Positions 24,156 to 63,124 are shown, numbered from the stretch's first letter. The stretch: 64,000 nucleotides of DNA from Candidatus Endomicrobium embiratermitis (GCA_009781315.1 WQYI01000002.1:61415-125414), one strand, 5' to 3'. A program made the numbers and translations. Notes: generated from the sequence alone by a model not told the origin.

Positions 24156-24268
24156 GACAAATAACAATTAACAAATGATAATTTACAATTAACGGCAAAA
24201 AACTATAGCAACAAGTTGACTTTAATTGTTATTTGTAAATTGTAAACTGTTAATTGTGGTTAATTGGG
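24156..24268. repeat. Composite palindromic element, TAACAATTAACAAAT family (family 1)
   Basis: aaataacaattaacaaatgataatttacaattaacgg ... ttaattgttatttgtaaattgtaaactgttaattgtggttaattgg; the 3' end runs into the GGGGG SD of dapA. Confidence 0.7.
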
Positions 24269-24274
24269 GGATGT

Positions 24275-25147
24275 ATGTTTCACGGGGTTTACACGGCTTT
24301 GATTACGCCTTTTAAGAATGACAAAATCGATTTTGACGCTTTAGGCGCGATAATTGAGAATCAAAAAAAATATGGTGTCGACGGATTAGTTCCCTGCGGA
24401 TCTACTGGCGAATCTACGACATTGTCTTATGAAGAACATGAAGCCGTAATAGAGTTTGCGGTTAAAGCCGTAAAAGGCAAAATGAAAGTTCTTGCCGGTA
24501 CGGGTTCAAATTCTACCGACGAAGCTATACATTTTACAAGTTTTGCCAAAAAAATCGGCTGCGACGGCGCTTTGATAGTTTCGCCTTATTACAATAAACC
24601 TACGCAAAAAGGCTTGTATCTTCATTTTAAACAAATTGCCGACAGCGTCGACATTCCGATAGTGCTTTATAATATCGCGGGCAGAACCGCCGTAAACATA
24701 GAAACCGCGACCGTCGCTAAATTATGTAAAGACTGCAAAAATATTATCGGCGTAAAAGAGGCGTCGGGGTCGCTTGACCAGATGAGCGCGGTAAAATCCG
24801 CCGTTGCGGAAATAGAACTTATTTCGGGAGACGATGCGCTTACGCTTCCGTTACTTTCAATAGGCGGTTGCGGAGTGATATCAGTCTTATCTAATATCGT
24901 TCCTCAAGAAGTCATATCTTTAGAAAGAGCTTTTAAAAGCGGAAATATAAAAGAAGCGCAAAGAATACATTACAAACTTTTGCCGCTTATAAAAGCTATG
25001 TTTATAGAAACAAATCCTATACCCGTGAAAACCGCGGCGGCAATGCTTGGAATGTGCGGTCCTGAGTTAAGGCTTCCGATGTGCGAGATGGATGAGGCAA
25101 ATAAAACAAAGCTTGAAAAAGCGATGAAGGATTTCGGACTTATTTAA
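24275..25147 (+). CDS. dapA: 4-hydroxy-tetrahydrodipicolinate synthase
   Basis: Begins MFHGVYTALITPF; the Schiff-base lysine region is present. The ORF track start at 24254 lies inside the repeat element. Confidence 0.88.
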   Translation: MFHGVYTALITPFKNDKIDFDALGAIIENQKKYGVDGLVPCGSTGESTTLSYEEHEAVIEFAVKAVKGKMKVLAGTGSNSTDEAIHFTSFAKKIGCDGALIVSPYYNKPTQKGLYLHFKQIADSVDIPIVLYNIAGRTAVNIETATVAKLCKDCKNIIGVKEASGSLDQMSAVKSAVAEIELISGDDALTLPLLSIGGCGVISVLSNIVPQEVISLERAFKSGNIKEAQRIHYKLLPLIKAMFIETNPIPVKTAAAMLGMCGPELRLPMCEMDEANKTKLEKAMKDFGLI

Positions 25148-25167
25148 AATGTACCAAAGGACTAAAT

Positions 25168-25692
25168 GTGAATAAAATATTGCTGGCGGTTGTAGCTGCG
25201 TTTTTGTTGTTGCCTAATGTTTATGCAACAAAACTTGTTAAAATAGTAAAAAATGAAAGCAGCGTTCAAATAAGAACGCCGGACGGCGAATTGAGCTTGT
25301 ACAAGGAAGGCGAAAAAGTTCCTGAACTTTTATACGGTTCGAAAATAATCGCCGGTTCAAAACCGGTATCAGTTCAATTTTTTAATACCGCGGTTATAGT
25401 TTTGGAAAAAAATCAGGGTATTTTTTTTACAAAAGACCCTATTAACAAAACAATAGAAATCTACAAACTTGAAACCAAAAGCAAGGATCAGAAAATAAAA
25501 GTTATTCTGCCAGGCAATATAACGGCGTATTTCGGCGCGGATGCGAAGATTACTTTAAAAGAACAGTTTCCAAGCATATATCTGGGGGTTAAAACAGGTT
25601 TTGCGACAGTCGAAGATTCTGACGGAACATTTTGCAAACTTGCCGAAGGCGACGACTATGAAGCAAAACAAAATTTGTTAAATGACTTTTAA
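25168..25692 (+). CDS. Hypothetical secreted protein
   Basis: 174 aa; GTG start with AAAGGA RBS; signal peptide. Confidence 0.5.
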   Translation: MNKILLAVVAAFLLLPNVYATKLVKIVKNESSVQIRTPDGELSLYKEGEKVPELLYGSKIIAGSKPVSVQFFNTAVIVLEKNQGIFFTKDPINKTIEIYKLETKSKDQKIKVILPGNITAYFGADAKITLKEQFPSIYLGVKTGFATVEDSDGTFCKLAEGDDYEAKQNLLNDF

Positions 25693-26230
25693 GTTTACAA
25701 AATTATCGATTCCGGACGTTGTTTTGATTGAATCTAAAAAATTCGAGGATTCAAGAGGTTTTTTTGCCGAATTATACCAGGAAAGCAAATTTAAGGAATT
25801 CGGTATCGACAAATCCGTGAAACAGATAAATCTTTCAAAATCTTCAAAAGGCGTTTTGAGAGGGCTCCATTATCAGCTTAACCCTTTTGCGCAGGGAAAA
25901 ATCGTAAGGGTTGTTGCCGGAAGCATCTTTGACGTTGCCGTGGATTTAAGAAAAAATTCGCAGTTTTACGGCAAATGGGTAGGCGTAAATTTAAAATCCG
26001 AAAACTTAAATATGCTTTATATTCCCGAAGGTTTTGCGCACGGTTTTGAAGTTCTTTCCGATACCGCCGAATTTGAATATCTTTGCACCCAGGTTTATTC
26101 GCCGCAGCATGAAAGGGGAATCAGATACGACGATCCTTTCCTTAACATATCATGGTCTTCAAAAAGTCCCGTTCTTTCCGAAAAAGATTTAAAATACCCG
26201 TTTTTTAAAGAAGCGGATACAAATTTTTAA
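25682..26230 (+). CDS. rfbC: dTDP-4-dehydrorhamnose 3,5-epimerase
   Basis: 182 aa; cupin motifs RGLHYQ and PEGFAHGF. Confidence 0.88.
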   Translation: MTFKFTKLSIPDVVLIESKKFEDSRGFFAELYQESKFKEFGIDKSVKQINLSKSSKGVLRGLHYQLNPFAQGKIVRVVAGSIFDVAVDLRKNSQFYGKWVGVNLKSENLNMLYIPEGFAHGFEVLSDTAEFEYLCTQVYSPQHERGIRYDDPFLNISWSSKSPVLSEKDLKYPFFKEADTNF

Positions 26231-26231
26231 A

Positions 26232-26732: not shown

Positions 26733-26755
26733 CATTTTCTTCTGTCAATATCGGC

Positions 26756-26880
26756 TTACTTGTCTTTAAATATCCGGAGCGTTCTATTCGTCTGTCATTC
26801 CCGCGAAAGCGGGAATCCAAGTTTAACATGACTCCCCTATTAAGACATTCGGGGATGACAAAAGGAAGGGTTTAAAACCT
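26756..26880. repeat. Palindromic element, GTCATTCCCGCGAAAGCGGGAATC type
   Basis: gtcattcccgcgaaagcgggaatc plus tcccctattaagacattcggggatgacaaaagg; the same core recurs at 40355-40390. Confidence 0.65.
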
Positions 26881-28101: not shown

Positions 28102-28204
28102 GAAGTTGGGCAGCTGGGAAGTTGAGCAACGACGAAGGTAAAGACAAAAGACGAAACGACCACAGCTCCTCTCAGCTTCTCAACTGCCAAGCTCTCTAAA
28201 CTTC
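28094..28204. repeat. Composite palindromic element, family 3, copy 2; its 5' arm overlaps the hisD stop codon
   Basis: gaagttgagaagttgggcagctgggaagttgagcaacgacgaagg ... cagctcctctcagcttctcaactgccaagctctctaaacttc. Confidence 0.7.
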
Positions 28205-29675: not shown

Positions 29676-30397
29676 TAGTAATTCCCGCGATTGATATAAG
29701 ACAAGGAAATTCCGTAAGGCTTAAACAGGGGAAAATTGACGCTGAAACCATTTATTCTACAGATCCTGTTTTTATCGCAAAACTTTGGAAAGCGAAAGGC
29801 GCGCAAAGAATTCACGTCGTGGATTTGGACGGGGCGTTCAGCGGCTTAAACAGCAATAAAGAAATTATAAAACAGATATGCGCTTCAATGGATATTCCCG
29901 TGGAAGTCGGCGGCGGAATAAGAACCATGGAAAGATTAAAAGAAGTGTTTGATATGGGCGCGTCTTATGCGATTTTGGGGACAGTAGCCGTATATAATCC
30001 GGAAATTGTCCGCAAAGCAGTCGATAAATACGGTCCGAAAAAAATCATAATCTCTATAGACGCGAAAGACGGAAAAGTTGCAATAGGCGGCTGGAAAGAC
30101 ATTACGCCTGTCGATATGTTTGAACTTATAGATAAATTGAAAGAAGCCGGCATAAAAGATATTTTGTACACGGATATTTCAAGAGACGGAATGTTAACAG
30201 GCCCCGATTTTAGCGGACTTAAGAAAATTTCAAAAACAGGAATGAGAATAATCGCTTCCGGCGGAATAAAAACCGTAGATGACATAGTAAAACTCAAAGG
30301 GCTTGAAAAAGACGGCGTTTTTGCCGCGATAGTCGGCAGCGCTTTATATACGGATGATTTCAAGCTTGAAGAAGCAATAAAAAAAGCAGAGGATTAG
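29672..30397 (+). CDS. hisA: ProFAR isomerase (1-(5-phosphoribosyl)-5-[(5-phosphoribosylamino)methylideneamino]imidazole-4-carboxamide isomerase)
   Basis: 241 aa; begins [17 protein letters not shown]; TIM barrel; 4-nt overlap with hisH. Confidence 0.9.
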
Positions 30398-30493
30398 AGG
30401 CAAAGAGGCAGGGATGCAGAGTAACTGCTCTTGAAATAAAGGCAGTTTTTGTTGTCTTTGCTCCGCATCTTTGCATCCTCGCATCCATGCATC
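30398..30493. repeat. Composite palindromic element, family 4, copy 3 (between hisA and hisF)
   Basis: aggcaaagaggcagggatgcagag ... ctccgcatctttgcatcctcgcatccatgcatc. Confidence 0.7.
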
Positions 30494-32745: not shown

Positions 32746-33141
32746 GTGGAAAAGATAATAAAAGTTTTAAAGTTCGATGACAAAGGATTAATTCCGGCCG
32801 TAGTGCAGGACTGGAAAGACAATGCCGTTTTAATGGTCGCGTATATGAATAAAGAGGCTGTTTTAAGAACCCTTAAAACAAAAAAAGCTACTTTCTGGAG
32901 CCGTTCAAGGCAGTCTTTTTGGGTAAAAGGCGAAAGTTCCGGAAATATCCAGAAAGTCAAAGAATTTTATTATGACTGCGACGGCGACTGCATACTTTTA
33001 AAAGTTAACCAAATCGGCGGAGCGGCGTGCCATACGGGGCATAGAAGCTGCTTTTTTACAAAAGTTACTTCGACCGGCAATACTAAAACCATTGGAAAGA
33101 AGTTGTTTGATCCGGAGAAAGTCTACAAAAAAGACAAGTAA
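32746..33141 (+). CDS. hisI: Phosphoribosyl-AMP cyclohydrolase
   Basis: 131 aa; CDGD and CHTG metal-binding motifs; HisI only, no HisE fusion. Confidence 0.88.
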
Positions 33142-33215
33142 CAATTTACAAATAACAATGAAAAACAATGTTTTTGTCGTTTTGTCGTTAATTGTAAATT
33201 ATTAATTGAAAATTG
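33139..33215. repeat. Composite palindromic element, family 1
   Basis: taacaatttacaaataacaatg ... cgttaattgtaaattattaattgaaaattgg; the 3' end supplies the GGAG RBS of trpF. Confidence 0.65.
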
Positions 33216-33876: not shown

Positions 33877-34851
33877 GTGGATGTATTAATGGATAACTTT
33901 AAAATAGCGAAAGAAACGATTGATATCGAAGTAAAAGCCCTTCAGCGCCAGATAAAACATCTTGACGCTAATTTTTCCAAAGCCGTTGATCTGATTAAGA
34001 ATTGCAGAGGGCGTATTTTGGTTATGGGGCTTGGAAAATCCGGGCTTATAGGGCGCAAAATATCTGCGACCATGTCTTCCGTAGGAATACCGTCGGCTTT
34101 TATTCATCCGTCGGAAAGTCTTCACGGTGATATCGGAATGGTTATGAAAGACGACGTAGTTATAATGCTTTCTTATTCCGGCGAAACCGAAGAAATTAAA
34201 AAAGTTCTTCCTGTTCTGCGTAAAATGAAAATAGAAGTCGTGGTTATGACCGGTAAACCGAAAGCGTTTGTATGGCGGGACTGCAAATGTATAATTGATT
34301 GCAGCGTTGAGAAAGAGGCGTGTCCTTATAATCTTGCGCCTACCGCTTCCACTACCGCAATGCTTGCAATGGGAGACGCTCTGTCTTTGACTGTTTCCAA
34401 TTTGAAAGGTTTTAAAAAAGAAAATCTGGCTTTGTTTCACCCGCTTGGAGCTATAGGCAAAAAGCTTACAATGCAGGTAAGCGATATTATGAGAAAAGGC
34501 AGCGCTAATCCGGTTGTAAAAGAAAATGCCTTTGTCGGGGACGCGCTTTTGGTAATGACCGGCACAAGAGTCGGCGCGACAAGCATTATAAATAAAAATG
34601 GAAAGATAACCGGCTTTTTTACCGACGGCGACTTAAGAAGACATTTGCAGAAAGACGGAAAAATTCTTAAAAAGAAAATTTCGGAAGTTATGACAAAATC
34701 TCCGCGCACGGTTACGCCCGATATGATGGCGGTTGACGCGGCGAGGATTTTAAAAAAATATAACATCGACAATATTCCGGTGGTAAGCAAAGACAATAAA
34801 CCTTTGGGAATTTTAGACCAGGGAGATTTGCTTGCCGAAGGAATTTCTTGA
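33877..34851 (+). CDS. kpsF: Arabinose-5-phosphate isomerase (KpsF/GutQ family; SIS plus tandem CBS domains)
   Basis: 324 aa; SIS motif VMGLGKSG; C-terminal CBS pair. Confidence 0.85.
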   Translation: MDVLMDNFKIAKETIDIEVKALQRQIKHLDANFSKAVDLIKNCRGRILVMGLGKSGLIGRKISATMSSVGIPSAFIHPSESLHGDIGMVMKDDVVIMLSYSGETEEIKKVLPVLRKMKIEVVVMTGKPKAFVWRDCKCIIDCSVEKEACPYNLAPTASTTAMLAMGDALSLTVSNLKGFKKENLALFHPLGAIGKKLTMQVSDIMRKGSANPVVKENAFVGDALLVMTGTRVGATSIINKNGKITGFFTDGDLRRHLQKDGKILKKKISEVMTKSPRTVTPDMMAVDAARILKKYNIDNIPVVSKDNKPLGILDQGDLLAEGIS

Positions 34852-34855
34852 AAAG

Positions 34856-34958
34856 CAATTAACAAATAACAATTTACAATTGACAAATGAAAACTGTCAA
34901 AAAAATTTAATTATTATTTATAATCTGTTAATTGTGCTTTGTTAATTATTAATTGTCT
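34856..34958. repeat. Composite palindromic element, family 1
   Basis: aattaacaaataacaatttacaattgacaaatg ... taatctgttaattgtgctttgttaattattaattg, followed by GGGGG. Confidence 0.7.
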
Positions 34959-34975
34959 TTATGGGGGAATTGAAA

Positions 34976-35782: not shown

Positions 35783-35784
35783 CG

Positions 35785-37185: not shown

Positions 37186-37308
37186 CAAAGTTGAAAGTGA
37201 AGAGAGAAAAGAGGAAATGTCGTATTTCGGCAAATCCGAAATTAATTTTAGGTTTTCGCTTTGCGAAAACACAATAATTTCACTTTTAACTTTACACTTT
37301 TCACTTTT
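37186..37308. repeat. Composite palindromic element, family 2 (AAAGTGAAAAGTG)
   Basis: Arms caaagttgaaagtgaagagag / ttcacttttaactttacacttttcacttttc; core hairpins tttcggcaaatccgaaa and ttttcgctttgcgaaaac. Confidence 0.75.
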
Positions 37309-40305: not shown

Positions 40306-40314
40306 ATGAAACAA

Positions 40315-40450
40315 TTAGGAATTAGGAGTGAGGAGTTAGGAATTAACGACAAAAGACTTTGTCATTCCCGCGAAAGCGGGAATCTAAGTTTTCTAAAAGT
40401 TTGCGGCGAAGCCGCTCCAAAATTCCTAATTCCTAATTTCTAACTCCTAA
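40315..40450. repeat. Composite palindromic element, ATTAGGAATTAGGAG arm flavour
   Basis: Arms attaggaattaggagtgaggagttaggaatt / aattcctaattcctaatttctaactcctaatt; core gtcattcccgcgaaagcgggaat plus tttgcggcgaagccgctccaaaatt. Confidence 0.75.
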
Positions 40451-40473
40451 TTAAATATAAAGAGGGGATATTT

Positions 40474-41983: not shown

Positions 41984-42000
41984 TAAAACAGTTAGTAATT

Positions 42001-42100
42001 AGTAGTGAGTAGTTAGTAGTTGTTGTGCGGGGCTTTGCCCCGCTAATAAACAGGTGCGCAAAGCGCACTCCAAAATTACTCACTATTCACTACTCACTGA
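42001..42100. repeat. Composite palindromic element, AGTAGTGAGTAG arm flavour
   Basis: Arms cagttagtaattagtagtgagtagttagtag / tactcactattcactactcactg; core gcggggctttgccccgc plus gtgcgcaaagcgcactccaaaatt. Confidence 0.75.
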
Positions 42101-46006: not shown

Positions 46007-46102
46007 GAAGTTTAGATGTTTGGCAGCTTGGAAGCTTGGCAAAAACAAAAGGCAGTTACTAAGCTTCCAAACTTCTAAGCTCTCTAAACTCTCTAAACTT
46101 CT
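46007..46102. repeat. Composite palindromic element, family 3, copy 3 (between tadB and tadC)
   Basis: gaagtttagatgtttggcagcttggaagcttggc ... aagcttccaaacttctaagctctctaaactctctaaacttc. Confidence 0.7.
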
Positions 46103-47098: not shown

Positions 47099-47106
47099 AA
47101 TATTGA

Positions 47107-48991: not shown

Positions 48992-49013
48992 TAAAAGCAG
49001 AGTAAGAATAATA

Positions 49014-49146
49014 AAAAGTGTAAAGTTGAAAGTTAAAAGTGAAAATTACGTGTTTTCGCTTTGCGAAAACTAATTAATTTGATTTCGGCTTTGTCGAAAT
49101 TCATTATTTTAACTTTGCACTTCTCACTTTTCACTTTGTCGTTAAA
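49014..49146. repeat. Composite palindromic element, family 2 (core hairpins in swapped order)
   Basis: aaaagtgtaaagttgaaagttaaaagtgaaaat ... gttttcgctttgcgaaaac ... gatttcggctttgtcgaaat ... ctttgcacttctcacttttcactttgtcgttaaaaaagg. Confidence 0.75.
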
Positions 49147-51263: not shown

Positions 51264-52178
51264 ATGAAAAGACATTTTTCTATCGCCGTATGTTTGGTAT
51301 TTATTATGAGCGTTTTTATCCCGTCTTTTTTGCATGCGGAAGATTATATGGTCTACGAAGACGGAGTTGTTGTTATGGTTGAAGACAAAAATTCTGAAGA
51401 TGAGACGGCCTCCGTAAATAAAAATGACGACGAAAATGATGTAAGCGAAGAAACGACAACCGTTACTGACGAGCACAAAGACTCGGAAGATGATAATACG
51501 GCGTCCGTAAATGAAAATGAGAACGAAAATGCAAGCGAAGAACCGACAACCGTTACTGACGAGCGCAAAAATTCGGAAGATAATAAAACGGCGGCCGTAA
51601 ATAAAAATAACGACGAAAATGTAAGCGAAGAAACGAAAACCGTTGCTGACGAGCGCAAAGATTCGGAAGATAATAAGACTGCATCCGTAAATGAGAATGA
51701 AGACGAGGATGAAAATAGTTTTGTCTACATAGGAAACGAAAGGAAAACTCGCGCAAATGCGAGTAAATTTAATGAATCCGGTAACGATAATGTTTCTGTA
51801 AATGAAAATAAAGAAAGAGGCGTAAAGGCACAGACGGCAAAGCCGAAACCGCAACAAGCGAAACCGCAGCAAGCGCAAAATACAGGTCCTAAACCTAACC
51901 AGGACGAACAGGCAATAGCAAAAAAAGTTCAGGAATATTATAATGAGTTTATGAAAAATCCTAAAGTGGTATCTTTTATTAAGTTTCTTTCAAAAAGATG
52001 GGAAGAAATAAAAGCTTTTGTTTCTGAGCTTCCGGGAATCAAGCAGTATAACAACTCTATATATACAAACGAAAACTACAAAAAAGAGATGGGAGCTTTT
52101 TCCACTGAATACAAACCTCATATACAGAGTAACAGCGAAGGCGTTCAAAAAGCCAAAGAAGGTGCAAAAAAGCTTTAA
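51264..52178 (+). CDS. Secreted acidic tandem-repeat protein (hypothetical)
   Basis: Signal peptide, then about 3.5 imperfect ~31-aa repeats (TTTVTDE[HR]K[DN]SED[DN][NK]TA[SA]VN[EK]N[EDN]...), a Q/P-rich segment (KPKPQQAKPQQAQNTGPKPNQ) and a folded-looking ~100-aa C-terminal domain. Confidence 0.6.
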   Translation: MKRHFSIAVCLVFIMSVFIPSFLHAEDYMVYEDGVVVMVEDKNSEDETASVNKNDDENDVSEETTTVTDEHKDSEDDNTASVNENENENASEEPTTVTDERKNSEDNKTAAVNKNNDENVSEETKTVADERKDSEDNKTASVNENEDEDENSFVYIGNERKTRANASKFNESGNDNVSVNENKERGVKAQTAKPKPQQAKPQQAQNTGPKPNQDEQAIAKKVQEYYNEFMKNPKVVSFIKFLSKRWEEIKAFVSELPGIKQYNNSIYTNENYKKEMGAFSTEYKPHIQSNSEGVQKAKEGAKKL

Positions 52179-52261: not shown

Positions 52262-52440
52262 AACCCTGTTTTGTTTATGTAAAGCGCATTAGCGTGGCTT
52301 ATGAATTAAAAATTTTTAAAAATCTTGAGGACTGTCCGAAGCGGCAACCTTATAAGCCTTTATTTGCCGCAAGTTCCGCAAACTGTTTTAAAAATTTTTA
52401 ATGAATGCGCTCGGCGCTTGAATAAACAAAACGAAAAAGC
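52262..52440 (+). mobile_element. MITE-like ~175-bp element with ~20-bp imperfect terminal inverted repeats
   Basis: gttttgtttatgtaaagcgcattagcg ... cgctcggcgcttgaataaacaaaacg, with internal sub-palindromes; full copy at 18612-18790 (inverted) and deleted copy at 47036-47098. Confidence 0.7.
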
Positions 52441-52444
52441 AATC

Positions 52445-52587
52445 TTGACATATCAACCCGTAGTTTTGTATAACCTGCAAAACCTAACCTGTAGAAAATA
52501 ATTCCTCGAAAAAATTTCTAAAAAAAAATCATTGACAAATCTATACGTATGTTGTAACATTATTTTTGCCACTACGGGTAGTTTTGT
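52445..52587 (+). promoter_or_regulatory. nrdR upstream region: two promoter-like hexamer pairs plus the palindromes TAGTTTTG-N9-CAAAACCTA and ACTACGGGTAGT
   Basis: TTGACA-N18-TATAAC at 52445-52474, TTGACA-N17-TAACAT at 52532-52560, perfect 12-bp palindrome ACTACGGGTAGT at 52571-52582; the motif cgtagttttgt occurs twice. Confidence 0.4.
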
Positions 52588-52624: not shown

Positions 52625-53107
52625 ATGAAATGTCCTTTTTGCGGAAGTTTTGAAGACCAAGTGCTTGATTCCCGCCCGATTGAACATTTGCCTGCCGTAA
52701 GGCGGCGCAGAGAATGTTCCGGCTGTAAAAAAAGGTATACCACTTTTGAAAGGCCTGAAGAAATAAGCCTTATGGTTGTTAAATCTGACCAAAGCAGGCA
52801 GCCTTTTGACAGAAAAAAGATTTGGGAAGGCATAGACAGAGCGTGCCGCAAACGTCCTATTGCCGTTGAAACAATAGACAAAATCGTAAGCGAAATAGAA
52901 AACGAGCTGACAGGCGAATACGTTATGGAAATACCGTCAAGCGTTATAGGACAGAAAATTTTAGATAAACTTTGGGACGTAGACCTTGTGGCGTATATAA
53001 GGTTTGCTTCGGTATATAGAAAATTCGGCGACATAGACACTTTTATGGCCGAACTTAAAAAACTTAAAAAAGAACATATAAAAAGACAATTGAAAAATAA
53101 CAAATAA
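52625..53107 (+). CDS. nrdR: Transcriptional repressor NrdR
   Basis: MKCPFCGSFEDQVLDSR zinc ribbon plus ATP-cone. Confidence 0.92.
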   Translation: MKCPFCGSFEDQVLDSRPIEHLPAVRRRRECSGCKKRYTTFERPEEISLMVVKSDQSRQPFDRKKIWEGIDRACRKRPIAVETIDKIVSEIENELTGEYVMEIPSSVIGQKILDKLWDVDLVAYIRFASVYRKFGDIDTFMAELKKLKKEHIKRQLKNNK

Positions 53108-53196
53108 CAGATAACAATTAAAAACGGCTGTAGTAATAAGGCAGCTTTGAAGTTTTAATTAATTTGTCAATTGTAAATTGTTAATTGTTGTTAATC
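53098..53196. repeat. Composite palindromic element, family 1 (between nrdR and nrdJ)
   Basis: aacaaataacagataacaattaaaaacgg ... ttaattaatttgtcaattgtaaattgttaattgttgttaatc followed by TGGGGG. Confidence 0.7.
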
Positions 53197-53208
53197 TGGG
53201 GGTTGAAA

Positions 53209-55527
53209 ATGGCACAAAACACTAAAGAGGAGCTTATTTCCGAAAACAGTGCAAAACTTGAAAAAAACGCGCTTACGGTTTTGCAAAAAAGATATTTAGG
53301 AAAAGACAGTAACGGCAATATAATTGAAGAACCGGAAGATTTATTTTACAGAGTGGCCGAAAATATTGCCCAGGCTGATAAAATATATGATAAAGACGCG
53401 GATTTGGCGTTTTTGATCAAAGAATTCTATTTGGCTATGTCGTCCCTTGATTTTTTGCCTAACTCTCCGACTTTGATGAACGCAGGCAGGCATTTACAGC
53501 AGCTTTCGGCGTGTTTTGTGCTTCCGATAGAAGATTCAATGGATTCTATATTTGAAACCCTTAAAAATACCGCTCTTATACATAAGTCGGGCGGCGGAAC
53601 TGGATTTTCTTTTTCAAGGCTGCGTCCTAAAAATGATAATGTAAAAACCACAAGCGGCGTGTCTTCGGGACCGGTATCTTTTATGCAGGTTTTTAACGCC
53701 GCTACGGAAGCCATTAAACAGGGCGGAACAAGACGCGGCGCGAATATGGGTATGCTTCGCGTTGATCATCCGGACATTTTAGACTTCATTACCTGTAAAG
53801 ACAGAAACGACAGCCTCAATAATTTCAATATTTCCGTGGCCGTGACAAAAGAGTTTATGGAGGCTTTGGAAGAAGAGACTGACTATAATCTTTATAATCC
53901 GCGCACTAAAGAAGCGGCGGGAACGCTTAACGCAAAAGAAGTTTTCAATAAAATAGTCGATCAGGCGTGGAAAAACGGCGAGCCGGGTATAGTTTTTATA
54001 GACAGGATGAACGACGCTAATCCTACTCCCGAAGCGGGGCTTATTGAATCGACAAACCCATGCGGCGAACAGCCGCTTCTCCCTTACGAGTCTTGCAATT
54101 TAGGATCGATAAATTTAAGTCATTTTGTAAAAGAGGGACAGGTTGACTGGGAAAGGCTTGAGAGTATTATTAAAACGGCGGTTCATTTTTTGGATAATGT
54201 TATAGACATGAACAATTATCCGATACAAAAAATCGGCGAGACCACGCGTTCTAACAGAAAAATCGGGCTTGGCGTTATGGGATGGGCTGATATGCTTTTA
54301 AGTTTAGGCATACCGTACGGTTCGCATGATTCTTTAATGCTTGCGGAAAAAGTTATGGGTTTTATACAATCCAAGTCGCACGAAGCTTCCGAAGAACTTG
54401 CTCTTAAAAGAGGAGCTTTCCCGAATTTTAAACAAAGTATATACGGCAAAGGAAATCCTATAAGAAACGCTACTACCACGACTATTGCTCCGACAGGCAC
54501 AATAGGCATTATAGCGTCGGCTTCGGGCGGTATAGAACCTATTTTTGCGCTTGTCTATAAAAGGGCAAATTGTCTGGATAACGCGGAAATGTACGAAGTG
54601 AACCCTCATTTTGAAAAAGTCGCAAAAGAACAGGGATTTTATTCCGCCGAACTTATGGATAAAATTGCCGAAAAAGGCAGCGTGCACGGGTTAAAAGAAG
54701 TTCCGGAAAAAATAAAAAAAGTTTTCGTCACCGCTCAGGACATTACGCCCGAAGACCATATAAGAATGCAGGCGGCTTTCCAGAAATTTACGGACAATGC
54801 CGTGTCAAAAACCGTAAACTTTCCTAATTCCGCTACTAAAGAAGACGTAAAAAAAGTTTATATGCTTTCGTATAAAATGGCTTGCAAAGGCGTAACGGTT
54901 TACCGCGACGGCAGCAGGGATTTACAGGTTTTAAATCTGGCAAATAAAAAAGAAACCGTTCAGTCTCAAGGAGAAATTAAAGAAAAAAAGCCGAGAACCA
55001 GGCCTAAAAAAACAATGGGATTCACGTTTTTAATGCATACGGGCTGCGGAAAGATGTATGTTACGATAAATGAAGATGAGCAGGGAGCGTGCGAGTTGTT
55101 TACGCAGCTCGGTAAATCAGGAGGCTGTACGTCGTCCCAGTCTGAAGCGGTCGCCCGTATGATTTCTTTGGCATTGCGTTCCGGCGTTAATCAGCAGGAT
55201 ATAATAAATCAGTTAAAAGGCATAAGATGTCCGTCGCCGACTTTGGCCGAAGGCGGAGCTATATTGTCTTGCGCGGACGCGGTTGCAAAAGCCCTCGAAG
55301 CTTACGCAAAAGAAAAACAAACTCCGGCTCTTTTTACCGAGGAAGTGATAAATTCCGAGCCGTATGCTCCGGTTGAAGAAAATAGCCGCCCTTCGGCGTC
55401 GTATTCTTCGGATATAAAAAATAATTTTTCAGGTTCATGCCCGCAATGTCCGGAATGCGGAGAGATGCTTACTTTTTCCGAAGGGTGCGTTGTGTGCAGG
55501 GACTGCGGATATAGTAAATGCTGGTAG
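53209..55527 (+). CDS. nrdJ: Adenosylcobalamin-dependent ribonucleoside-diphosphate/triphosphate reductase (class II, NrdJ)
   Basis: About 772 aa from MAQNTKEEL; active-site NPCGEQPL motif; C-terminal CxxC...CxxC zinc ribbon. Confidence 0.88.
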   Translation: MAQNTKEELISENSAKLEKNALTVLQKRYLGKDSNGNIIEEPEDLFYRVAENIAQADKIYDKDADLAFLIKEFYLAMSSLDFLPNSPTLMNAGRHLQQLSACFVLPIEDSMDSIFETLKNTALIHKSGGGTGFSFSRLRPKNDNVKTTSGVSSGPVSFMQVFNAATEAIKQGGTRRGANMGMLRVDHPDILDFITCKDRNDSLNNFNISVAVTKEFMEALEEETDYNLYNPRTKEAAGTLNAKEVFNKIVDQAWKNGEPGIVFIDRMNDANPTPEAGLIESTNPCGEQPLLPYESCNLGSINLSHFVKEGQVDWERLESIIKTAVHFLDNVIDMNNYPIQKIGETTRSNRKIGLGVMGWADMLLSLGIPYGSHDSLMLAEKVMGFIQSKSHEASEELALKRGAFPNFKQSIYGKGNPIRNATTTTIAPTGTIGIIASASGGIEPIFALVYKRANCLDNAEMYEVNPHFEKVAKEQGFYSAELMDKIAEKGSVHGLKEVPEKIKKVFVTAQDITPEDHIRMQAAFQKFTDNAVSKTVNFPNSATKEDVKKVYMLSYKMACKGVTVYRDGSRDLQVLNLANKKETVQSQGEIKEKKPRTRPKKTMGFTFLMHTGCGKMYVTINEDEQGACELFTQLGKSGGCTSSQSEAVARMISLALRSGVNQQDIINQLKGIRCPSPTLAEGGAILSCADAVAKALEAYAKEKQTPALFTEEVINSEPYAPVEENSRPSASYSSDIKNNFSGSCPQCPECGEMLTFSEGCVVCRDCGYSKCW

Positions 55528-55534
55528 TATACGA

Positions 55535-55666
55535 CAAAGTAGAAAGTTAAAAGTGTAAAGTGAAAATATTGTGTTTCGGCAAAGCCGAAACAGAGTTTAG
55601 GTTTTTGCAAAGCAAAAACACATCTTAACTTTTAACTCTTCACTTTTCACTTTGTCGTTAAAAAAG
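55535..55666. repeat. Composite palindromic element, family 2
   Basis: caaagtagaaagttaaaagtgtaaagtgaaaat ... gtttcggcaaagccgaaac ... gtttttgcaaagcaaaaac ... cttaacttttaactcttcacttttcactttgtcgttaaaaaaggg. Confidence 0.8.
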
Positions 55667-58233: not shown

Positions 58234-58249
58234 ATTTATAGCGTCTTAA

Positions 58250-58340
58250 TAAAATTGACACGAAGTGTCACCCCGTTGAAAAACGGGGTCTCAGTTAATA
58301 ATAAACATGGATACCGACTTTCGTCGGTATGACAAAAGAT
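58250..58340. repeat. Cluster of three short hairpins, GACACGAAGTGTCACC type
   Basis: gacacgaagtgtcac; ccccgttgaaaaacgggg; ataccgactttcgtcggtat. Confidence 0.6.
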
Positions 58341-58562
58341 ATGATTAACATCTTGCTTTTGTCAATTTTTAAGCCTTTAACGACAACGGCTGTCGCAGGC
58401 GTCGCCTAAACGCAAAAATACTTTGCCTTTAACGGCAAATACTACGCCTCTTAAACGGCAAGTAAAGACATATAAAATGTAATATAATGCAAGACGTTAT
58501 ATATTACTTTTTATATGTTATATTTTATATGTTTTTAAATTTTGTTTTCATTAAGGGGTATA

Positions 58563-59447: not shown

Positions 59448-59527
59448 AATATAACATGTAAAATATTTTTATTCCCTCGCCCCTTGCGGGAGAGGGACAA
59501 GCGGAGCTTGAGGGTGAGGGGTCGCTT

Positions 59528-60397
59528 TTGAAACGTAAAATAATTGATACTATCATTGAAAAAATAATATTTTTTTGCGGAATACTGGCAATAGTCTTTG
59601 TCACGCTTATATTCGGTTTTTTGCTTAAAGAAGGCTTTGCGTTTTTTAAAGAATACGGCGTTATAAGTTTTATAGCCGGAAAATTGTGGTATCCTACCTC
59701 TGATCCGGCGCAATTCGGCATACTTTCCATGATAGTCGGTTCTCTTTTAGTGACCGCTGGCGCTTGTGTAATTGCGGTTCCTATAGGCATTATGGCTGCG
59801 TTATACATTTCCGAAATTGCTCCCAAAGGAGTGAGAGACGTTTTGAAATCTTTTATAGAACTTATGGCTGCGGTTCCAAGCGTTGTTATAGGTTTTGTCG
59901 GCATGGTTACGCTTGTTCCTCTTGTAAGAACTATTTTTGATCTTCCTACGGGGCTTACTGCTTTTTCAGGTTCTATAATGCTTGCGTTTATGGCAATGCC
60001 TACTATAGTTACCATATCCGAAGACGCTATACGTTCGGTTCCGTGGTCGTATAAAGAAGGAGCGTTGGCGCTCGGCGCGACTAAATGGCAGACGATACGC
60101 CGCATAGTTTTAAAAGCGGCAATGCCCGGAATTATCGCAGCGGTAATGCTCGGGATAGGGCGCGTTGTCGGTGAAACTATGGCTGTTATGATGATAACCG
60201 GAAACGCGGCTCATATACCTAGTTCTATTTTTGAGCCTGTTCGTACGATGACGGCGACTATTGCAGCCGAAATGGGCGAGACAGTCCGGGGCGGAATGCA
60301 TTACAGGGCGTTATTTGCCATAGGGCTTGTTCTGTTTATTATTACGTTTATAGTAAATTTTATAGCGGACTTATTTTTGGGAAAAAGCAAGAAGTAA
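59528..60397 (+). CDS. pstC: Phosphate ABC transporter permease
   Basis: 289 aa; 6 TM helices; EAA-like loop. Confidence 0.85.
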   Translation: MKRKIIDTIIEKIIFFCGILAIVFVTLIFGFLLKEGFAFFKEYGVISFIAGKLWYPTSDPAQFGILSMIVGSLLVTAGACVIAVPIGIMAALYISEIAPKGVRDVLKSFIELMAAVPSVVIGFVGMVTLVPLVRTIFDLPTGLTAFSGSIMLAFMAMPTIVTISEDAIRSVPWSYKEGALALGATKWQTIRRIVLKAAMPGIIAAVMLGIGRVVGETMAVMMITGNAAHIPSSIFEPVRTMTATIAAEMGETVRGGMHYRALFAIGLVLFIITFIVNFIADLFLGKSKK

Positions 60398-60495
60398 TTA
60401 ACAATTAACAATTAATAATGAACAATTGTTGAGCGCGCTTTGCGCGCATATAATTTGCGGCTTTGCCGCTCCAAAATTGTTATTTGTAATTTGGT
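60396..60495. repeat. Composite palindromic element, family 1 (between pstC and pstA)
   Basis: aattaacaattaacaattaataatgaacaattg ... gagcgcgctttgcgcgc ... ttgcggctttgccgctccaaaattg ... ttatttgtaatttgg. Confidence 0.75.
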
Positions 60496-60502
60496 GTTAA
60501 AA

Positions 60503-61357: not shown

Positions 61358-61360
61358 TTT

Positions 61361-61492
61361 TAACGACAAAGTGAAGAGTGAAAAGTGTAGAGTGTAAATA
61401 TTGTGTTTCGGCGAAGCCGAAACGGATTAAATGTTTTTGCAAAGCAAAAACTCATTATTTCCACTTTTAACTTTCAACTTTTCAAATTGTCT
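61361..61492. repeat. Composite palindromic element, family 2 (between pstA and pstB1)
   Basis: acgacaaagtgaagagtgaaaagtgtagagtg ... gtttcggcgaagccgaaac ... gtttttgcaaagcaaaaac ... ccacttttaactttcaacttttcaaattgtc. Confidence 0.8.
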
Positions 61493-61504
61493 CTGCAGGT
61501 AAAA

Positions 61505-62254
61505 ATGGATAAAATAAAAGTTGAAAATTTAAGTTGTTTTTATGGCGGACAATGCGTTTTGGAATCGTTGGATATCAACGTTGTCAAAAACGAGATACTG
61601 ACTATTATAGGCCCCGCAAACAGCGGCAAAACCACTTTTTTAAGAACTCTTAACAGAATGAGCGATTTAAACACTAGTTATTCGCGTAAAGGCACTGTAT
61701 ATCTCGACGATGAAAATATTTTTAATATGAATATGGAAAAACTCAGGAAACGCGTCGGAATGCTTTTCGCAATGCCCATACCTTTGCCTATGACGATTTA
61801 TGAAAATATAGTTTACGCGCCTAAAAGACTCGGGCTTGTTTCTAAAAAAAACGAAATGGACGCTGTTGTAGAACAGGCTTTGAAAGACGCTTCTTTATGG
61901 GACGAGGTTAAAGACAGGCTTAACTCTTCGGGAATGAAACTTTCCGGCGGCCAGCAGCAAAGGCTTTGCATAGCAAGAATATTAGCGATAAATCCCGAAG
62001 TTATTTTATTTGACGAACCCTGCTCCGGACTTGATCCTATTTCAACTGCGAAAGTAGAAGAATCTATGATAGAGTTGAAAGAAAAATATACTATCGTCCT
62101 TGTGACGAATAACGTAAAACAGGCTTCAAGAGTAGGCGACAGAACTGCGTTTTTCCTTATGGGAAAACTTGTAGAAATTGATAAAACGGGAACTATGTTT
62201 GTTTCGCCGAAGCAGAAACAGACGGAAGACTATATTACAGGCAGATTTGGATAA
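61505..62254 (+). CDS. pstB: Phosphate import ATP-binding protein PstB, copy 1
   Basis: Begins MDKIKVENLS; Walker A GPANSGKTT; signature LSGGQQQRL. Confidence 0.88.
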   Translation: MDKIKVENLSCFYGGQCVLESLDINVVKNEILTIIGPANSGKTTFLRTLNRMSDLNTSYSRKGTVYLDDENIFNMNMEKLRKRVGMLFAMPIPLPMTIYENIVYAPKRLGLVSKKNEMDAVVEQALKDASLWDEVKDRLNSSGMKLSGGQQQRLCIARILAINPEVILFDEPCSGLDPISTAKVEESMIELKEKYTIVLVTNNVKQASRVGDRTAFFLMGKLVEIDKTGTMFVSPKQKQTEDYITGRFG

Positions 62255-62261
62255 TAACGGC

Positions 62262-62320
62262 AGTTAACAATTTACAAATAATAATTAACAAATTTGTTTT
62301 AAATTGTTAATTATAAATTG
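62262..62320. repeat. Composite palindromic element, family 1 (short; between pstB1 and pstB2)
   Basis: cagttaacaatttacaaataataattaacaaatttgttttaaattgttaattataaattgg followed by AG. Confidence 0.65.
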
Positions 62321-62330
62321 GAGTTTTGAT

Positions 62331-63089
62331 TTGGCAATAAAAATACAAATAAAAAATTTTAATCTTTGGTACACGGATTTTCTTGCGCTTAAGAATATAA
62401 ATATCGCTATTGAGGAAAAGCGTATTACCGCAATGATAGGTCCTTCGGGCTGCGGTAAATCTACTCTTTTGCGCGCCATAAACAGAATAAATGACACTAT
62501 TGAAGGCGTGCGTACGGAAGGCGACATAATTATCTCCGGAAAAAGTGTTTACGACAGCAGAGCCGATGTTGAAGTTTTACGCAGAAATGTCGGTATGGTT
62601 TTTCAGCGGCCGAATCCTTTTCCGATTTCTATTTATGAGAATGTGGCTTTCGGTTTGAAAGTCAACAGGATAGAGTCTAAAAAAAGTCTCATTGACGAAA
62701 CGGTTGAAGAAAGTCTTAAGTCTGTTTTACTTTGGGATGACATAAAACATAAACTGAAAAAATCCGCTCTCGAACTTACTTTAGAGCAGCAGCAGAGGCT
62801 TTGCATAGCAAGAGTTATAGCTGTAAAATCGCAAATTATTCTTTTAGACGAACCTTGCTCGTCTCTTGATCCTGTCGCGACACAGAGAATAGAAGAGTTG
62901 ATGCTGCAGCTTAAAGATAAATACACGATAGTCATAGTGACGCACAATATGCAGCAGGCGGCGAGGGTTTCTGCCGATACGGCTTTTATGCTTTTGGGCG
63001 ATCTTATAGAATTTGATAAAACCGAAAAAATATTTACAAATCCCGCTAAAAAAGAAACAAACGATTATGTGAGCGGAAGATTCGGATAA
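62331..63089 (+). CDS. pstB: Phosphate import ATP-binding protein PstB, copy 2
   Basis: Probable TTG start (MAIKIQIKNFNLWY) 7 nt after GGAG; Walker A GPSGCGKST; signature LTLEQQQRL. Confidence 0.85.
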   Translation: MAIKIQIKNFNLWYTDFLALKNINIAIEEKRITAMIGPSGCGKSTLLRAINRINDTIEGVRTEGDIIISGKSVYDSRADVEVLRRNVGMVFQRPNPFPISIYENVAFGLKVNRIESKKSLIDETVEESLKSVLLWDDIKHKLKKSALELTLEQQQRLCIARVIAVKSQIILLDEPCSSLDPVATQRIEELMLQLKDKYTIVIVTHNMQQAARVSADTAFMLLGDLIEFDKTEKIFTNPAKKETNDYVSGRFG

Positions 63090-63124
63090 TGGCAATTACG
63101 AATTACGAATAATTGGGGGAAACT

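Follow-up and report, generated by a model that had tools for sequence, protein, structure and literature searches.

Word-armed fold-back repeats with interchangeable mini-hairpin cores in the intergenic DNA of a termite-gut Endomicrobium

Word-armed hairpins of the window

The stretch analysed here (the window, 64 kb of a termite-gut Endomicrobium genome) carries about 21 long, imperfect hairpins, flanked by unrelated housekeeping genes (his, pst, tad, nrd, pur), whose arms are built of short repeated words. The elements are 50-140 nt long and non-coding, with only short, spurious ORFs called over them. The arms, 20-48 nt in length, are paired inverted arrays in which a 7- or 8-nt word recurs in 3-7 copies; they are 71-93% complementary, and purines prevail in the 5' arm and pyrimidines in the 3' arm, whichever strand is read. 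An earlier note on this DNA had confined such elements to 24-63 kb, but others begin at 1496, 5371, 15071, 15830 and 21930. Within 24-63 kb, its statement that nearly every spacer longer than 60 nt is occupied proved roughly right: by manual reading of the spacer sequences, 14 of 21 contain a word-armed hairpin and 4 of 21 another repeated type of hairpin. The features are as follows, with the strand given where one was assigned.

1496..1579: word-armed hairpin of the GAGATGC/GCAGAGA family (D), adjoining minus-strand genes
5371..5409: half element, a lone AAGTGAA-type array without partner arm
15071..15188: element with TTAATGG arms (G), lying between two minus-strand genes and holding a T-core hairpin that has decayed (ATGAGTGTGCTTTGCGTAC)
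15830..15922: GAAGTTGA-family hairpin (C, period 8), minus-strand genes on both sides
21930..22036: GCAGAGAT-family hairpin (D, period 8) within a divergent promoter region
24157..24257: AACAATT-family (A) hairpin with the TTAACGGCAA junction motif at its centre and no GC mini-hairpin
26793..26865, plus strand: TGTC-tagged REP (attcccgcgaaagcgggaat, tail CCA) and a second, inverted hairpin ending ATGACA
28104..28193: family C hairpin (GAAGTTG/GGCAGCT), no GC core
30395..30487: family D hairpin (GGCAGAG/GATGCAG), no GC core
33135..33208: coreless family A hairpin, right inner junction TTGTCGTTA
34851..34960: family A hairpin, AT-rich at its centre
37187..37307, plus strand: family B element (AAGTGAA arms) with a B-type double mini-hairpin core
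40313..40452, plus strand: AATTAGG-armed element (E), the 5' part of its centre holding a TTAACGACAA junction, a GACAAA hairpin and a CGTC-type REP (40360-40386)
40401-40424, plus strand: 3' part of the centre of element E, the second of the two T-core hairpins (GCGGC-GAA-GCCGC) and the tail CTCCAAAATT
41989..42099, plus strand: AGTAGTG-armed element (F) with a T-type core, made up of a GCGGGGC-TTT hairpin (42027-42043), a GTGCGC-AAA hairpin (42054-42068) and the tail, to 42077
46009..46100: family C hairpin (GGCAGCTT/GGAAGCTT), no GC core
49006..49137, minus strand: family B element, core inverted relative to the 55531 and 61365 copies
53096..53192: family A hairpin in the nrdR/RNR spacer, where relatives have other families or nothing
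55531..55658, plus strand: family B element with outer ends ACGACAAAG...CTTTGTCGT and core hairpins TGTTTCGGC-AAA and GTTTTTGC-AAA
60385..60500, plus strand: family A arms with a full T-core in the pstC/pstA spacer, made up of a GCGCGC-TTT hairpin (60433-60447), a GCGGC-TTT hairpin (60456-60468) and the tail, to 60478
61365..61491, plus strand: family B element in the pstA/pstB1 spacer, absent there in L004, L007, L009 and L010
62268..62320: short coreless family A hairpin in the pstB1/pstB2 spacer
63093..63112: half element of two ATTACGA words; the same spacer of L004 has a full ATTACGA hairpin

These elements are dispersed, multi-copy DNA. We counted 26 clusters of long, imperfect hairpins in the window against 2-6 in Markov shuffles, and self-similarity at period 7 picked out 17 segments, with 0-6 at lags 4-11 otherwise. 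Independently, TRF resolved the arms into arrays of 3-7 copies with period 7 in families A, B, E, F, G and H and period 8, not 7, in families C and D, so that intergenic tandem arrays of a 7-nt unit, as in STRR-type repeats, are present and the earlier note's inverted arms of short words are confirmed. Word sequence and copy number differ between copies, and in L005 a 48-nt unit has been amplified in tandem. The sequence TAACGRCAA is frequent at element ends and inner junctions, and the more inclusive TAACGRCAR occurs 16 times in the window against 2.7 expected, always pointing inward at element borders.

Predicted folds were stable in the eight elements folded (z from -2.5 to -9.1). Among arm mispairs read on the sense strand, 77 were G·U-compatible and 69 A·C (p = 0.56), and the arms therefore show no sense-strand G·U bias. 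An Rfam search of the window at the gathering score returned three tRNAs only, no element matching a curated RNA family. Independent ENA, JGI and Logan assemblies give one and the same window sequence, so the repeats are not an assembly artefact; contigs of the same species are all 100% identical, and no recent insertion or excision was therefore caught.

Hairpin modules within the arms

The apex of an element may be empty or hold at least one short hairpin module from what would be a common pool: the T-core, the B-core and a CGTC-tagged REP. The earlier note had given every family a core of GC-rich stems. Such mini-hairpins are present in about 8 of the approximately 21 elements, whereas in most AACAATT, GAAGCTG and GCAGAGA copies the centre is AT-rich or lacks structure, and copies without a core are known for arm families that elsewhere carry one. 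The loops, described there as 4 nt throughout, are better read as 3-nt AAA, TTT or GAA loops closed by a G-C pair, a 4-nt GAAA loop being found in the REP only.

The T-core, about 55 nt long, consists of a GCGCGC hairpin, some 10 nt (N10), a GCGGC hairpin and then TCCAAAATT. Its tail, CTCCAAAATT, occurs three times in the window, always on the plus strand (40415, 42068 and 60469), against 0.37 expected, and a count of three was reached in none of 100 shuffles. The tail shared by three elements that the earlier note had reported is thus real, although it spans three arm families in the window (AATTAGG, AGTAGTG and AACAATT) and not six. Scanning JGI metagenome contigs for GCGGCNNNGCCGCTCCAAAATT gave 24 stretches, of which about 13 were high-GC chance matches in unrelated DNA and 11 were low-GC contigs, ten of them distinct (L095 and L105 overlap). 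In nine of these ten (L094, L095, L100, L104, L109, L112, L114, L116 and L102), the match falls within a word-armed element, of which L102 has just the right arm; in L107 (GC 0.54, from the window's own metagenome) it lies outside any element. The collection scanned is not exhaustive, the JGI contig of the window itself being missing from the hits, and the metagenome copy numbers are therefore lower bounds. The metagenome copies have the module immediately internal to the 3' arm, with TTAATAG, TTAATGG/TTAATGA, AAGAATT/AAGAATG and ATTACGA as the surrounding words, so that the window and nine other low-GC contigs together place the T-core within about seven arm families. The tail is invariant in nine copies whose adjoining arms are unrelated.

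The T-core stems vary (GCGCGC, GTGCGC, GTGCGGC, GCGGGGC) yet remain paired: 92% of cells in the stem alignment are paired, a share that drops to 15-59% once the partner is shifted along. Mini-hairpin stems thus diverge between copies but stay self-complementary. A selected RNA structure or a protein-binding site would likewise agree with self-complementary stems and a conserved single-stranded tail. By manual count, nine T-cores have the same orientation as their flanking genes and four the opposite, a mild excess; for T- and B-cores together, a manual tally gave 14 and 7 (two-sided binomial p ~0.19). Cores therefore occur in both orientations.

The B-core is a double hairpin with TTTCGGC and TTTT(T/C)GC stems. 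Family B, in which it is found, is a dispersed repeat of 125-130 nt with four loci in the window and two in L009, its copies being homologous along their full length, and one of the L009 copies sits in a different spacer from the window copy. At a third L009 site, the B-core is enclosed by AACAATT arms. Its arm partners are AAGTGAA, AAGAGTG, AACAATT and AATAATT, and the core loops AAA, TTT and GAA flip independently of core order. One core is thus found with many arm families, and one arm type with different cores.

The third module, attcccgcgaaagcgggaat, occurs exactly twice in the window (26797-26816 and 40364-40383), with no further match even at 3 mismatches. The earlier note had put it in two tail-bearing elements and at 26765-26790; only one of the three tail-bearing elements has it, and this string was the exception among those that the note quoted, all others being at or near the positions given. 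Both copies are preceded by a TGTC tag (26793-26796 and 40360-40363). The 8-bp stem (ATTCCCGC/GCGGGAAT) begins with A-T pairs, and the 3' tail is CCA at 26817-26819 and CTA, one mismatch away, at 40384-40386. CGTC-1 REPs are defined by an unpaired CGTC (or TGTC/CCTC) tag, an 8-bp stem starting AT, a 4-nt loop and a CCA tail (PMC3733652), a definition that the attcccgcgaaagcgggaat module, with its TGTC tag and CCA tail, fits. No GTAG or CGTC tag adjoins the T- or B-core hairpins in the core alignments. The REP at 26793..26865 belongs to a different class of repeat that also nests in word-armed elements; the REP module is found within AAGAGTG, TTAATAG and AATTAGG arms.

Orthologous spacers in relatives and the origin of the elements

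Orthologous spacers of congeners vary in the presence, family and core of the element. In the pst operon and the ribonucleotide reductase region, the genes of congeners abut or overlap, or are separated by an element that has other arms or that combines matching arms with a different core. The pstC/pstA spacer has AACAATT arms in both the window and L009, around a T-core in the former and a B-core in the latter; something else is present in L004, and L007 and L010 have a gap of 6 nt between the pstC stop and the pstA start. Independent insertions of two common elements could also explain arms that agree and cores that differ at a single spacer. In the pstB1/pstB2 spacer, L004 has a family A element with a different centre and L009 a family B element. 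By a strict criterion, word-armed hairpins number 11 in the window, 5 in L009, 4 in L022 and 1 each in L004 and L005, and none in the congeners L006-L008, L010 and L011, nearly all Endomicrobiellum endosymbionts, rumen Elusimicrobia and most outgroups. Neither of the two outcomes that the earlier note had named as refuting its idea came about: the tail is found elsewhere, in the nine metagenome contigs, and spacers are unequally occupied in relatives. Its proposal of a modular system, with a conserved core dressed in family-specific arms and dispersed in the manner of MITEs or REPs, is therefore supported.

We considered whether the hairpins might be functional intercistronic RNA, acting as mRNA stabilisers, RNase III or RNase E sites, or weak terminators or attenuators that tune operon expression, with one design reused. 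In its favour, elements begin a few bases past a stop codon and finish 10-20 nt ahead of a ribosome-binding site, the RNA folds predicted for them are highly stable (z as low as -9), core stems keep their pairing while the sequence changes and T-cores lean toward the sense orientation; moreover, terminator-like sites number 38 against 21 in shuffles, and a permissive scan flagged the core hairpins at 40364, 60433, 61433 and 49052. The terminator tails of these flagged hairpins are interrupted, however (for example, ATATAATTTG and TCATTATTTC; a canonical bidirectional terminator, for comparison, lies at 12490-12537), and in B-core mini-hairpins the GC stem has a T-run on its 5' side and an A-run on its 3' side, opposite to the order in an intrinsic terminator. 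The absence of a sense-strand G·U excess from the arms and the occurrence of cores in either orientation also speak against a role in RNA, as do the congeners that lack elements at the same operon junctions, the change of occupying family from species to species, the element in a divergent promoter region, fragments within coding sequence (in the dcd gene of L004, an arm fragment is inserted in frame) and the decayed copy at 15071-15188. We regard such a function as unlikely.

It is more doubtful still that the arms are immobile simple-sequence arrays, generated by polymerase slippage independently in each spacer (compare STRR and heptamer LSSRs) and similar by convergence. Period 7 does dominate, as it does in long simple-sequence repeats of many bacteria (Mrazek 2007), word sequence and copy number vary, and there are half arrays at 5371 and 63093 as well as the tandem 48-nt unit of L005. 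Yet cores of 22 nt that are identical, and of 55 nt that are nearly so, recur at unlinked loci and in separate metagenomes, the family B copies show full-length homology, TAACGRCAR always points inward at element borders, and slippage alone does not produce a matching inverted arm. Least probable, in our judgement, is that the core, and especially CTCCAAAATT, is bound by a host protein that recognises DNA or RNA, for instance a nucleoid-associated protein or a regulator, with a regulon-like set of targets; the invariance of the tail beside unrelated arms and the binding of host proteins by REPs of other bacteria (PMC2817692) would agree with this, but the flanking genes are functionally unrelated, a covariance model found no T-core in 22-kb loci of the closest named relatives and copies decay.

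We conclude that the elements probably form a superfamily of small, selfish, MITE/REP-like fold-back repeats with quick turnover, in which hairpin modules nest at hairpin apices; they behave like fast-turnover selfish DNA and not like conserved regulatory signals. No target-site duplication was recognisable at filled versus empty pst junctions, where TAA/TTAA-like arm starts would mask 2-4 nt, and no transposase was found among the window ORFs tested or in the 20 kb of sequence flanking it (84 kb of genome read), nor a RAYT gene in the same 84 kb; the mobilising mechanism we can therefore only infer. The elements of free-living termite-gut Endomicrobium may spread as selfish DNA into intergenic DNA, with modules inserting or being exchanged at the apex of existing hairpins when the DNA is single-stranded or extruded, through either a trans-acting, hairpin-recognising (HUH/Y1-type) transposase or template switching during replication. 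Arms would diversify by word slippage and templated correction within the hairpin. Co-transcribed in operons, the elements would fold in mRNA, a side effect tolerated by selection and not their raison d'être.

Comparison with known systems

Drosophila Foldback (FB) transposons have long inverted arms of tandem short sub-repeats, variable in length, around a centre that is heterogeneous or absent. The Endomicrobium elements resemble them in their sub-repeat arms, arm length variation and variable or missing centre, but FB elements are eukaryotic and of kilobase scale, and a mechanistic relation is speculative. Bacterial MITEs include Correia, RUP, ERIC, Nezha and Chunjie (reviewed in PMC3184786 and PMC10969869). 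Like them, the window elements are small (<~500 bp), non-coding and intergenic, with terminal inverted repeats, a stable predicted hairpin, many dispersed copies and filled versus empty orthologous sites among related genomes. In classical MITEs, however, the conserved part is the terminal inverted repeats, which match an IS, and direct target duplications flank the element, whereas the window elements conserve an internal core and vary in their arms (arrays of 7-8-nt words in many families), with no target duplication or parent IS seen.

The GTAG- and CGTC-tagged REP superfamilies and REPINs (PMC3116915, PMC3733652) are likewise short, GC-rich extragenic hairpins, patchy among strains, that commonly lie as inverted pairs forming a larger hairpin and at times are nested inside longer palindromes. 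T- and B-core mini-hairpins differ from REPs in having 5-9-bp stems and 3-nt loops without the tag, and the word-array arms that dominate the window elements are no part of REPs or REPINs. The TAACTGA heptamer repeats of Beggiatoaceae, Cyanobacteria and Bacteroidetes, proposed as sites for a translational regulator, are also intergenic heptamer arrays near start codons with a sporadic phylogeny, but they are direct repeats of a single word without partner arm or core (PMC4679880).

The modular design of the Endomicrobium elements, with interchangeable mini-hairpin cores in arms of 7- or 8-base words, is little described. Its closest conceptual match is the modular nesting of the cyanobacterial STRRs and "small dispersed repeats", for which Elhai and coworkers in 2008 reportedly described intergenic tandem heptamers and dispersed modules of 21-27 nt in conserved contexts (heptamer arrays and hairpins) into which they had apparently been inserted. 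The cyanobacterial repeats belong to another phylum and are unrelated in sequence; in Endomicrobium, by contrast, heptamer arrays come systematically in inverted pairs that form the two arms, and each nested module is itself a hairpin or double hairpin, 13-55 nt long.

Word-armed hairpins in the window

The window lies within a 209,729-nt ENA metagenome contig (ERZ27264051 k141_4538588), and its sequence recurs at 100% identity on JGI (3300009826) and Logan contigs; because these independent contigs are identical, the sequence is not an assembly artefact. The GC content is ~39%, and the ribonucleotide reductase (53185-55527) has 94% identity with its counterpart in the MAG "Candidatus Endomicrobium macrotermitis", 85-87% with those of other Endomicrobium MAGs, 74-78% with those of Endomicrobiellum endosymbionts and ~73% with those of rumen Elusimicrobia. 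The genes are all of ordinary housekeeping or surface type (dapA, his, accD, folC, Tad pilus, purA, thyX, nrdR/RNR, dcd, guaA and pstSCAB-phoU), and no transposase is encoded among them or across the 84 kb of this genome examined. ORF 51264-52178 (304 aa, without a Pfam match) contains a 90-nt unit repeated 3.3 times (51405-51706) and is, as judged from its sequence, a repeat protein; the 677-aa ORF 38272-40305, which adjoins the Tad pilus genes, is likewise without a Pfam match.

Long imperfect hairpins form 26 clusters in the window, compared with 2-6 in Markov shuffles (the final scan did not score G·T as a full mismatch, a full penalty having lost one-third of the elements). Self-similarity at a period of 7 was found in 17 segments, compared with 0-6 at other lags, and TRF independently resolved the arms into arrays of 3-7 units each, with a period of 7 in the AACAATT, AAGTGAA, AATTAGG, AGTAGTG, TTAATGG and ATTACGA families and a period of 8 in the GAAGTTGA and GCAGAGAT families. 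The predicted folds of eight elements had z-scores of -2.5 to -9.1. The window holds ~21 such word-armed elements, dispersed, in multiple copies and totalling ~2.0 kb. An earlier note, whose quoted strings are present in the window, had placed them in 24-63 kb; 16 do lie there, but five lie outside, of which three adjoin minus-strand genes and one is in a divergent promoter region.

Both in the window and in the other loci compared, purines predominate in the 5' arm (68% A+G) and pyrimidines in the 3' arm, and the 5' arm has more G than C in 44 cases versus 11 of the reverse. Because reverse complementation does not alter this purine-first bias, it would fit a shared ancestry of all of the families. 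The motif TAACGRCAR, six-fold enriched (16 occurrences versus 2.7 expected), sits at outer or inner arm borders and points inwards every time.

Practical effects of the elements include broken assemblies, spurious ORFs and displaced predicted start codons. The TTG or GTG ORF starts listed at 49061, 60440, 61403 and 63113 are inside elements, and the real starts are downstream of them (49160, ~60504, ~61508 and 63125, the last confirmed by exact protein look-up). A separate palindrome, GTTTTGTTTATGTAAAGCGC...GCGCTTGAATAAACAAAAC, has two copies in the window (47040-47100 and 52262-52445), one before tRNA-Lys/Glu and the other before nrdR, and a promoter-like TTGACA box follows each closely; the loop of the 52262-52445 copy holds an extra ATTAAAAATTTTTAAAA hairpin and ~100 nt.

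Hairpin cores and the arms that carry them

GC-rich mini-hairpin cores with 4-nt loops had been attributed to all of the families. Such cores exist, but in only ~8 elements, and we read their loops instead as 3 nt (AAA, TTT or GAA), closed by a G-C pair. In one type, the T-core, a GCGGC hairpin and a tail form a module whose usual upstream partner is the hairpin (A/T)TGAGCGCGC-TTT-GCGCGC, followed by a ~10-nt spacer. The copies at 40398-40424 and 60453-60478 have TTTGCGGC-NNN-GCCGCTCCAAAATT in common, and CTCCAAAATT occurs 3 times in the window (0.37 expected).

When JGI metagenome contigs were scanned for GCGGCNNNGCCGCTCCAAAATT, 24 stretches matched. About 13 of these were chance matches in high-GC coding DNA, and the other 11 were low-GC contigs whose spacers are of the same kind, counted as ten because two of them (L095 and L105) overlap at 99.3%. 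Except in L107, where the match is not within an element, the right arm of a word-armed hairpin follows the module directly on its 3' side; thus the tail is not peculiar to the window, the same module being found in other low-GC metagenome contigs. A further 20 kb of this genome beyond the window held remnants only and zero additional tails, and a search of IMG/VR phages gave two high-GC chance matches to the T pattern and none to the B pattern.

Arm words found around the T-core (L numbers are metagenome contigs)
TTAATAG: L094, L112, L114
TTAATGG/TTAATGA: L095, L100, L109
AAGAATT/AAGAATG: L095, L116
ATTACGA: L104
AATTAGG, AGTAGTG, AACAATT: window

The tail, TCCAAAATT, is invariant in alignment A2 save for one C-to-T change, and the bases that follow it are unrelated, which shows that the tail is part of the core and not of the arms. 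The first-hairpin stems vary yet remain self-complementary (GCGCGC, GTGCGC, GTGCGGC and GCGGGGC); 92% of stem cells are paired, compared with 15-59% when the partner is slid, and covariation counts over the nine sequences are only modestly higher than in shuffles. A T-core covariance model had matches in the window and in the tail-bearing metagenome contigs and none in the 22-kb loci of four Endomicrobium relatives (L004, L005, L007 and L009) or in outgroups. Cores also decay: in the TTAATGG-armed element at 15071-15188, the T-core hairpin has been eroded by transitions.

The second type, the B-core, consists of two hairpins, TTTCGGC-NNN-GCCGAAA and TTTT(T/C)GC-NNN-GC(A/G)AAAA, whose 3-nt loops switch independently among AAA, TTT and GAA, and it is found in both orientations relative to the neighbouring genes. 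It characterises family B, a dispersed repeat of 125-130 nt with AAGTGAA/AAGAGTG arms and outer ends TTAACGACAAAG...CTTTGTCGTTAA (window 37187, 49006, 55531 and 61365; congener L009 9120 and 18040), and it is also found within AACAATT arms (L009 16262) and AATAATT arms (L114 872).

A third module is the attcccgcgaaagcgggaat hairpin (26793-26819 and 40360-40386), with a TGTC tag, an 8-bp stem starting from AT, a GAAA loop and a CCA/CTA tail. CGTC-1 REPs, among them Neisseria dRS3, are defined by a tag, an AT-started 8-bp stem, a 4-nt loop and a tail (PMC3733652), and the attcccgcgaaagcgggaat hairpin matches this definition, which appears to extend the superfamily to the Elusimicrobiota. Exact copies of attcccgcgaaagcgggaat occur only at 26797 and 40364, so just one tail-bearing element has it and not two, as had been thought. 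Related (C/T)GTCAT hairpins occur alone or as inverted pairs (12545, 26793, 35790 and 58256, with REP-like pairs at 12545-12614, 35790-35897 and 58256-58336), TGTCAY...ATGACA inverted pairs occupy other spacers, and some (C/T)GTCAT hairpins are nested at the apex of word-armed elements (window 40360; L114 108-252 and 2276-2444). The same arm families also form coreless hairpins (e.g., L112 1784, L095 4570 and window 62268). Taken together, the T-core, B-core, REP, coreless and TAACGRCAR results show the arms-by-core matrix to be at least partly combinatorial.

Two further kinds of hairpin were seen in these loci. A dispersed type, CCCTCGCCCCTTGCGGGAGAGGG...GAGGGTGAGGGG, occurs in the window (59470-59528) and in termite-gut contigs L094 (1359-1455) and L095 (9682-9792, nested within AGAGTGAAG arms). 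The distant Endomicrobiales MAG L022 has AGCGTAT/AGCGGAT heptamer arms around centres of 158 nt (12280-12493) and 235 nt (14313-14603), the latter with a 50-codon ORF whose product resembles a small membrane protein.

Orthologous spacers and distribution in relatives

Relatives are not identically occupied: orthologous spacers are empty, hold another family or hold the same arms around another core.

Orthologous spacers in the window and in Endomicrobium relatives (L004, Ca. E. macrotermitis; L009, a congener)
pstC-pstA: window, AACAATT arms with T-core; L009, same AACAATT arms with B-type core; L004, unrelated GATGCAT-like sequence; L007 and L010, stop and start codons 6 nt apart
pstA-pstB1: window, family B element; L004 and L009, other short sequence; L007, short spacer; L010, overlapping genes (ATGGTAG)
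pstB1-pstB2: window, coreless AACAATT hairpin; L004, same family with different centre; L009, family B element; L007 and L010, plain spacers
pstB2-phoU: window, two ATTACGA words; L004, complete ATTACGA hairpin; L009, ATATAAA hairpin; L007 and L010, plain spacers
nrdR-RNR: window, AACAATT; L004, AAGTTAAG; L009, ATTACGA; L005, 48-nt unit repeated 5.2 times; L007, L008 and L011, none
purA-thyX (window-L004 comparison): window, inverted family B; L004, coreless ATTACAA hairpin

Under a strict criterion, we counted 11 word-armed hairpins in the window, 5 in L009, 4 in L022 and a single one in each of L004 and L005. Congeners L006-L008, L010 and L011 had none, and the same was true of nearly all Endomicrobiellum loci, all rumen Elusimicrobia and most outgroups; lone look-alikes occur in L068, L047 and the Dehalococcoidia contig L079. 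Such patchiness marks DNA that invades and turns over quickly rather than a structure fixed long ago. The same-species contigs, all 100% identical, showed no strain polymorphism or recent change, and no target duplication could be recognised at the elements. The modular, MITE- or REP-like interpretation of the earlier note thus survives comparison both of the tail elsewhere and of spacer occupancy, and the observation behind it was largely right.

A fragment of an element also lies within a gene. Relative to all other orthologues, the L004 dcd gene has two in-frame insertions (12466-12510 and ~12590-12660), the first of which is an AGTTAGG/AGTGAGG/AGTCAGG array with a TTAACGGC junction, so that an element arm is translated as LGVRSQESGINGGSS. 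Upstream of the L005 ribonucleotide reductase gene (8508-8766), the tandem 48-nt unit TAATTGCCGTTAAAAGCCGTTGATTCGTAATTCGTAATTTGTAATTTT corresponds to the junction motif joined to an ATTACGA element's right half. Between guaA and pstS, the 312-nt window spacer (58234-58545) is filled with REP-like hairpins, and L004 has three extra ORFs (14800-17329) that look like a putative restriction-modification system, two being methyltransferase-like and one endonuclease-like. L095 and L105 share 2.5 kb at 99.3% identity, and their synteny breaks precisely at a half element (L095 ~11860-11890; L105, reverse complement, ~2490-2520) with a terminal AACGRCAAAA junction motif, which hints that elements can be rearrangement breakpoints.

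Possible RNA-level roles, a proposed mechanism and known systems

Once transcribed, the elements are certain to fold, and they are likely to have side effects on the stability or processing of the mRNA. However, in the sense strand of 47 elements between co-directional genes, arm mispairs were G·U-compatible in 77 cases and A·C in 69 (P = 0.56), so that this test of RNA-strand function was negative, and the tally of core orientations (14 sense, 7 opposite) was not significant. The balanced mispairs, the two core orientations, the decayed core and the dcd insertion are all at odds with a strand-specific RNA role as the main cause of the elements. A permissive terminator scan flagged several core hairpins, with interrupted T-tails, and B-core hairpins have a T-run 5' and an A-run 3' of the GC stem; in contrast to these cores, the perfect 22-bp hairpin with A-run and T-run flanks between convergent genes at 12490-12537 is by its predicted structure a textbook bidirectional intrinsic terminator. 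Stop codons in all three frames of C-free 5' arms and start avoidance in G-free 3' arms gave no general rule (families D and H are without stops, D has ATG, and the family A 5' arm has C), and masking of a downstream Shine-Dalgarno sequence by CUCC in the tail was rejected because the arm helix has the tail at one end and the ribosome-binding site at the other. Identity as a CRISPR, a retron or a riboswitch was also rejected (no arrays, reverse transcriptase or Rfam match); at the gathering threshold, Rfam found tRNAs only across the window.

We infer that the elements spread selfishly and non-autonomously, with hairpin modules (T-core, B-core and CGTC-REP) that would insert or exchange at the apex of an existing hairpin when the DNA is single-stranded or extruded. 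The agent might be a trans-acting hairpin-recognising enzyme, by analogy with RAYT or IS200/IS605 Y1 transposases acting on REPs, or else template switching. Arms would diversify by word slippage and templated correction between arms, and selection would keep only copies that spare genes and do not terminate transcription. We regard as doubtful the bolder proposal of a prokaryotic class of fold-back transposon, in which conservation and recognition would centre on the internal double hairpin and its single-stranded tail (GCGGC-NNN-GCCGC-TCCAAAATT) instead of the termini. In this proposal, a single-stranded-DNA enzyme specific for hairpins would move the core by targeting the apex of existing hairpins, slippage and intra-hairpin template switching would generate and reshape the word-array arms around it, and the resulting combinatorial arms-by-core system would colonise operon junctions without terminating transcription.

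The Endomicrobium elements are fold-back repeats of modular build, their arms being arrays of words and their hairpin cores interchangeable. If this modular picture is true, free-living Endomicrobium has hundreds of nested hairpin repeats, with insertions reaching even translationally coupled gene pairs, and the reduced Endomicrobiellum endosymbionts are without them, a contrast that, in this model system for the evolution of symbionts, would be a marker of genome dynamics.

We found no description of such elements in the literature on Endomicrobium or Elusimicrobia repeats, heptamer inverted repeats or STRRs. One nested module, the attcccgcgaaagcgggaat hairpin, is a CGTC-1 REP, and REPs within longer palindromes have been reported (PMC3733652). 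The elements resemble MITEs in size, inverted ends, copy number and filled or empty sites; no target duplication was recognisable at them, and no transposase of a possible parent IS turned up in the 84 kb of this genome examined. They reverse the classical MITE, however, in having variable termini and a conserved core. The Drosophila Foldback element has arms built from sub-repeats and a heterogeneous centre, a design common to the Endomicrobium elements. The nearest conceptual match is in cyanobacteria, where heptamer STRR arrays are reportedly combined with small dispersed repeats of 21-27 nt (Elhai, in 2008); together with those repeats, the Endomicrobium elements point to a still uncharacterised mechanism by which very small hairpin DNAs are moved.
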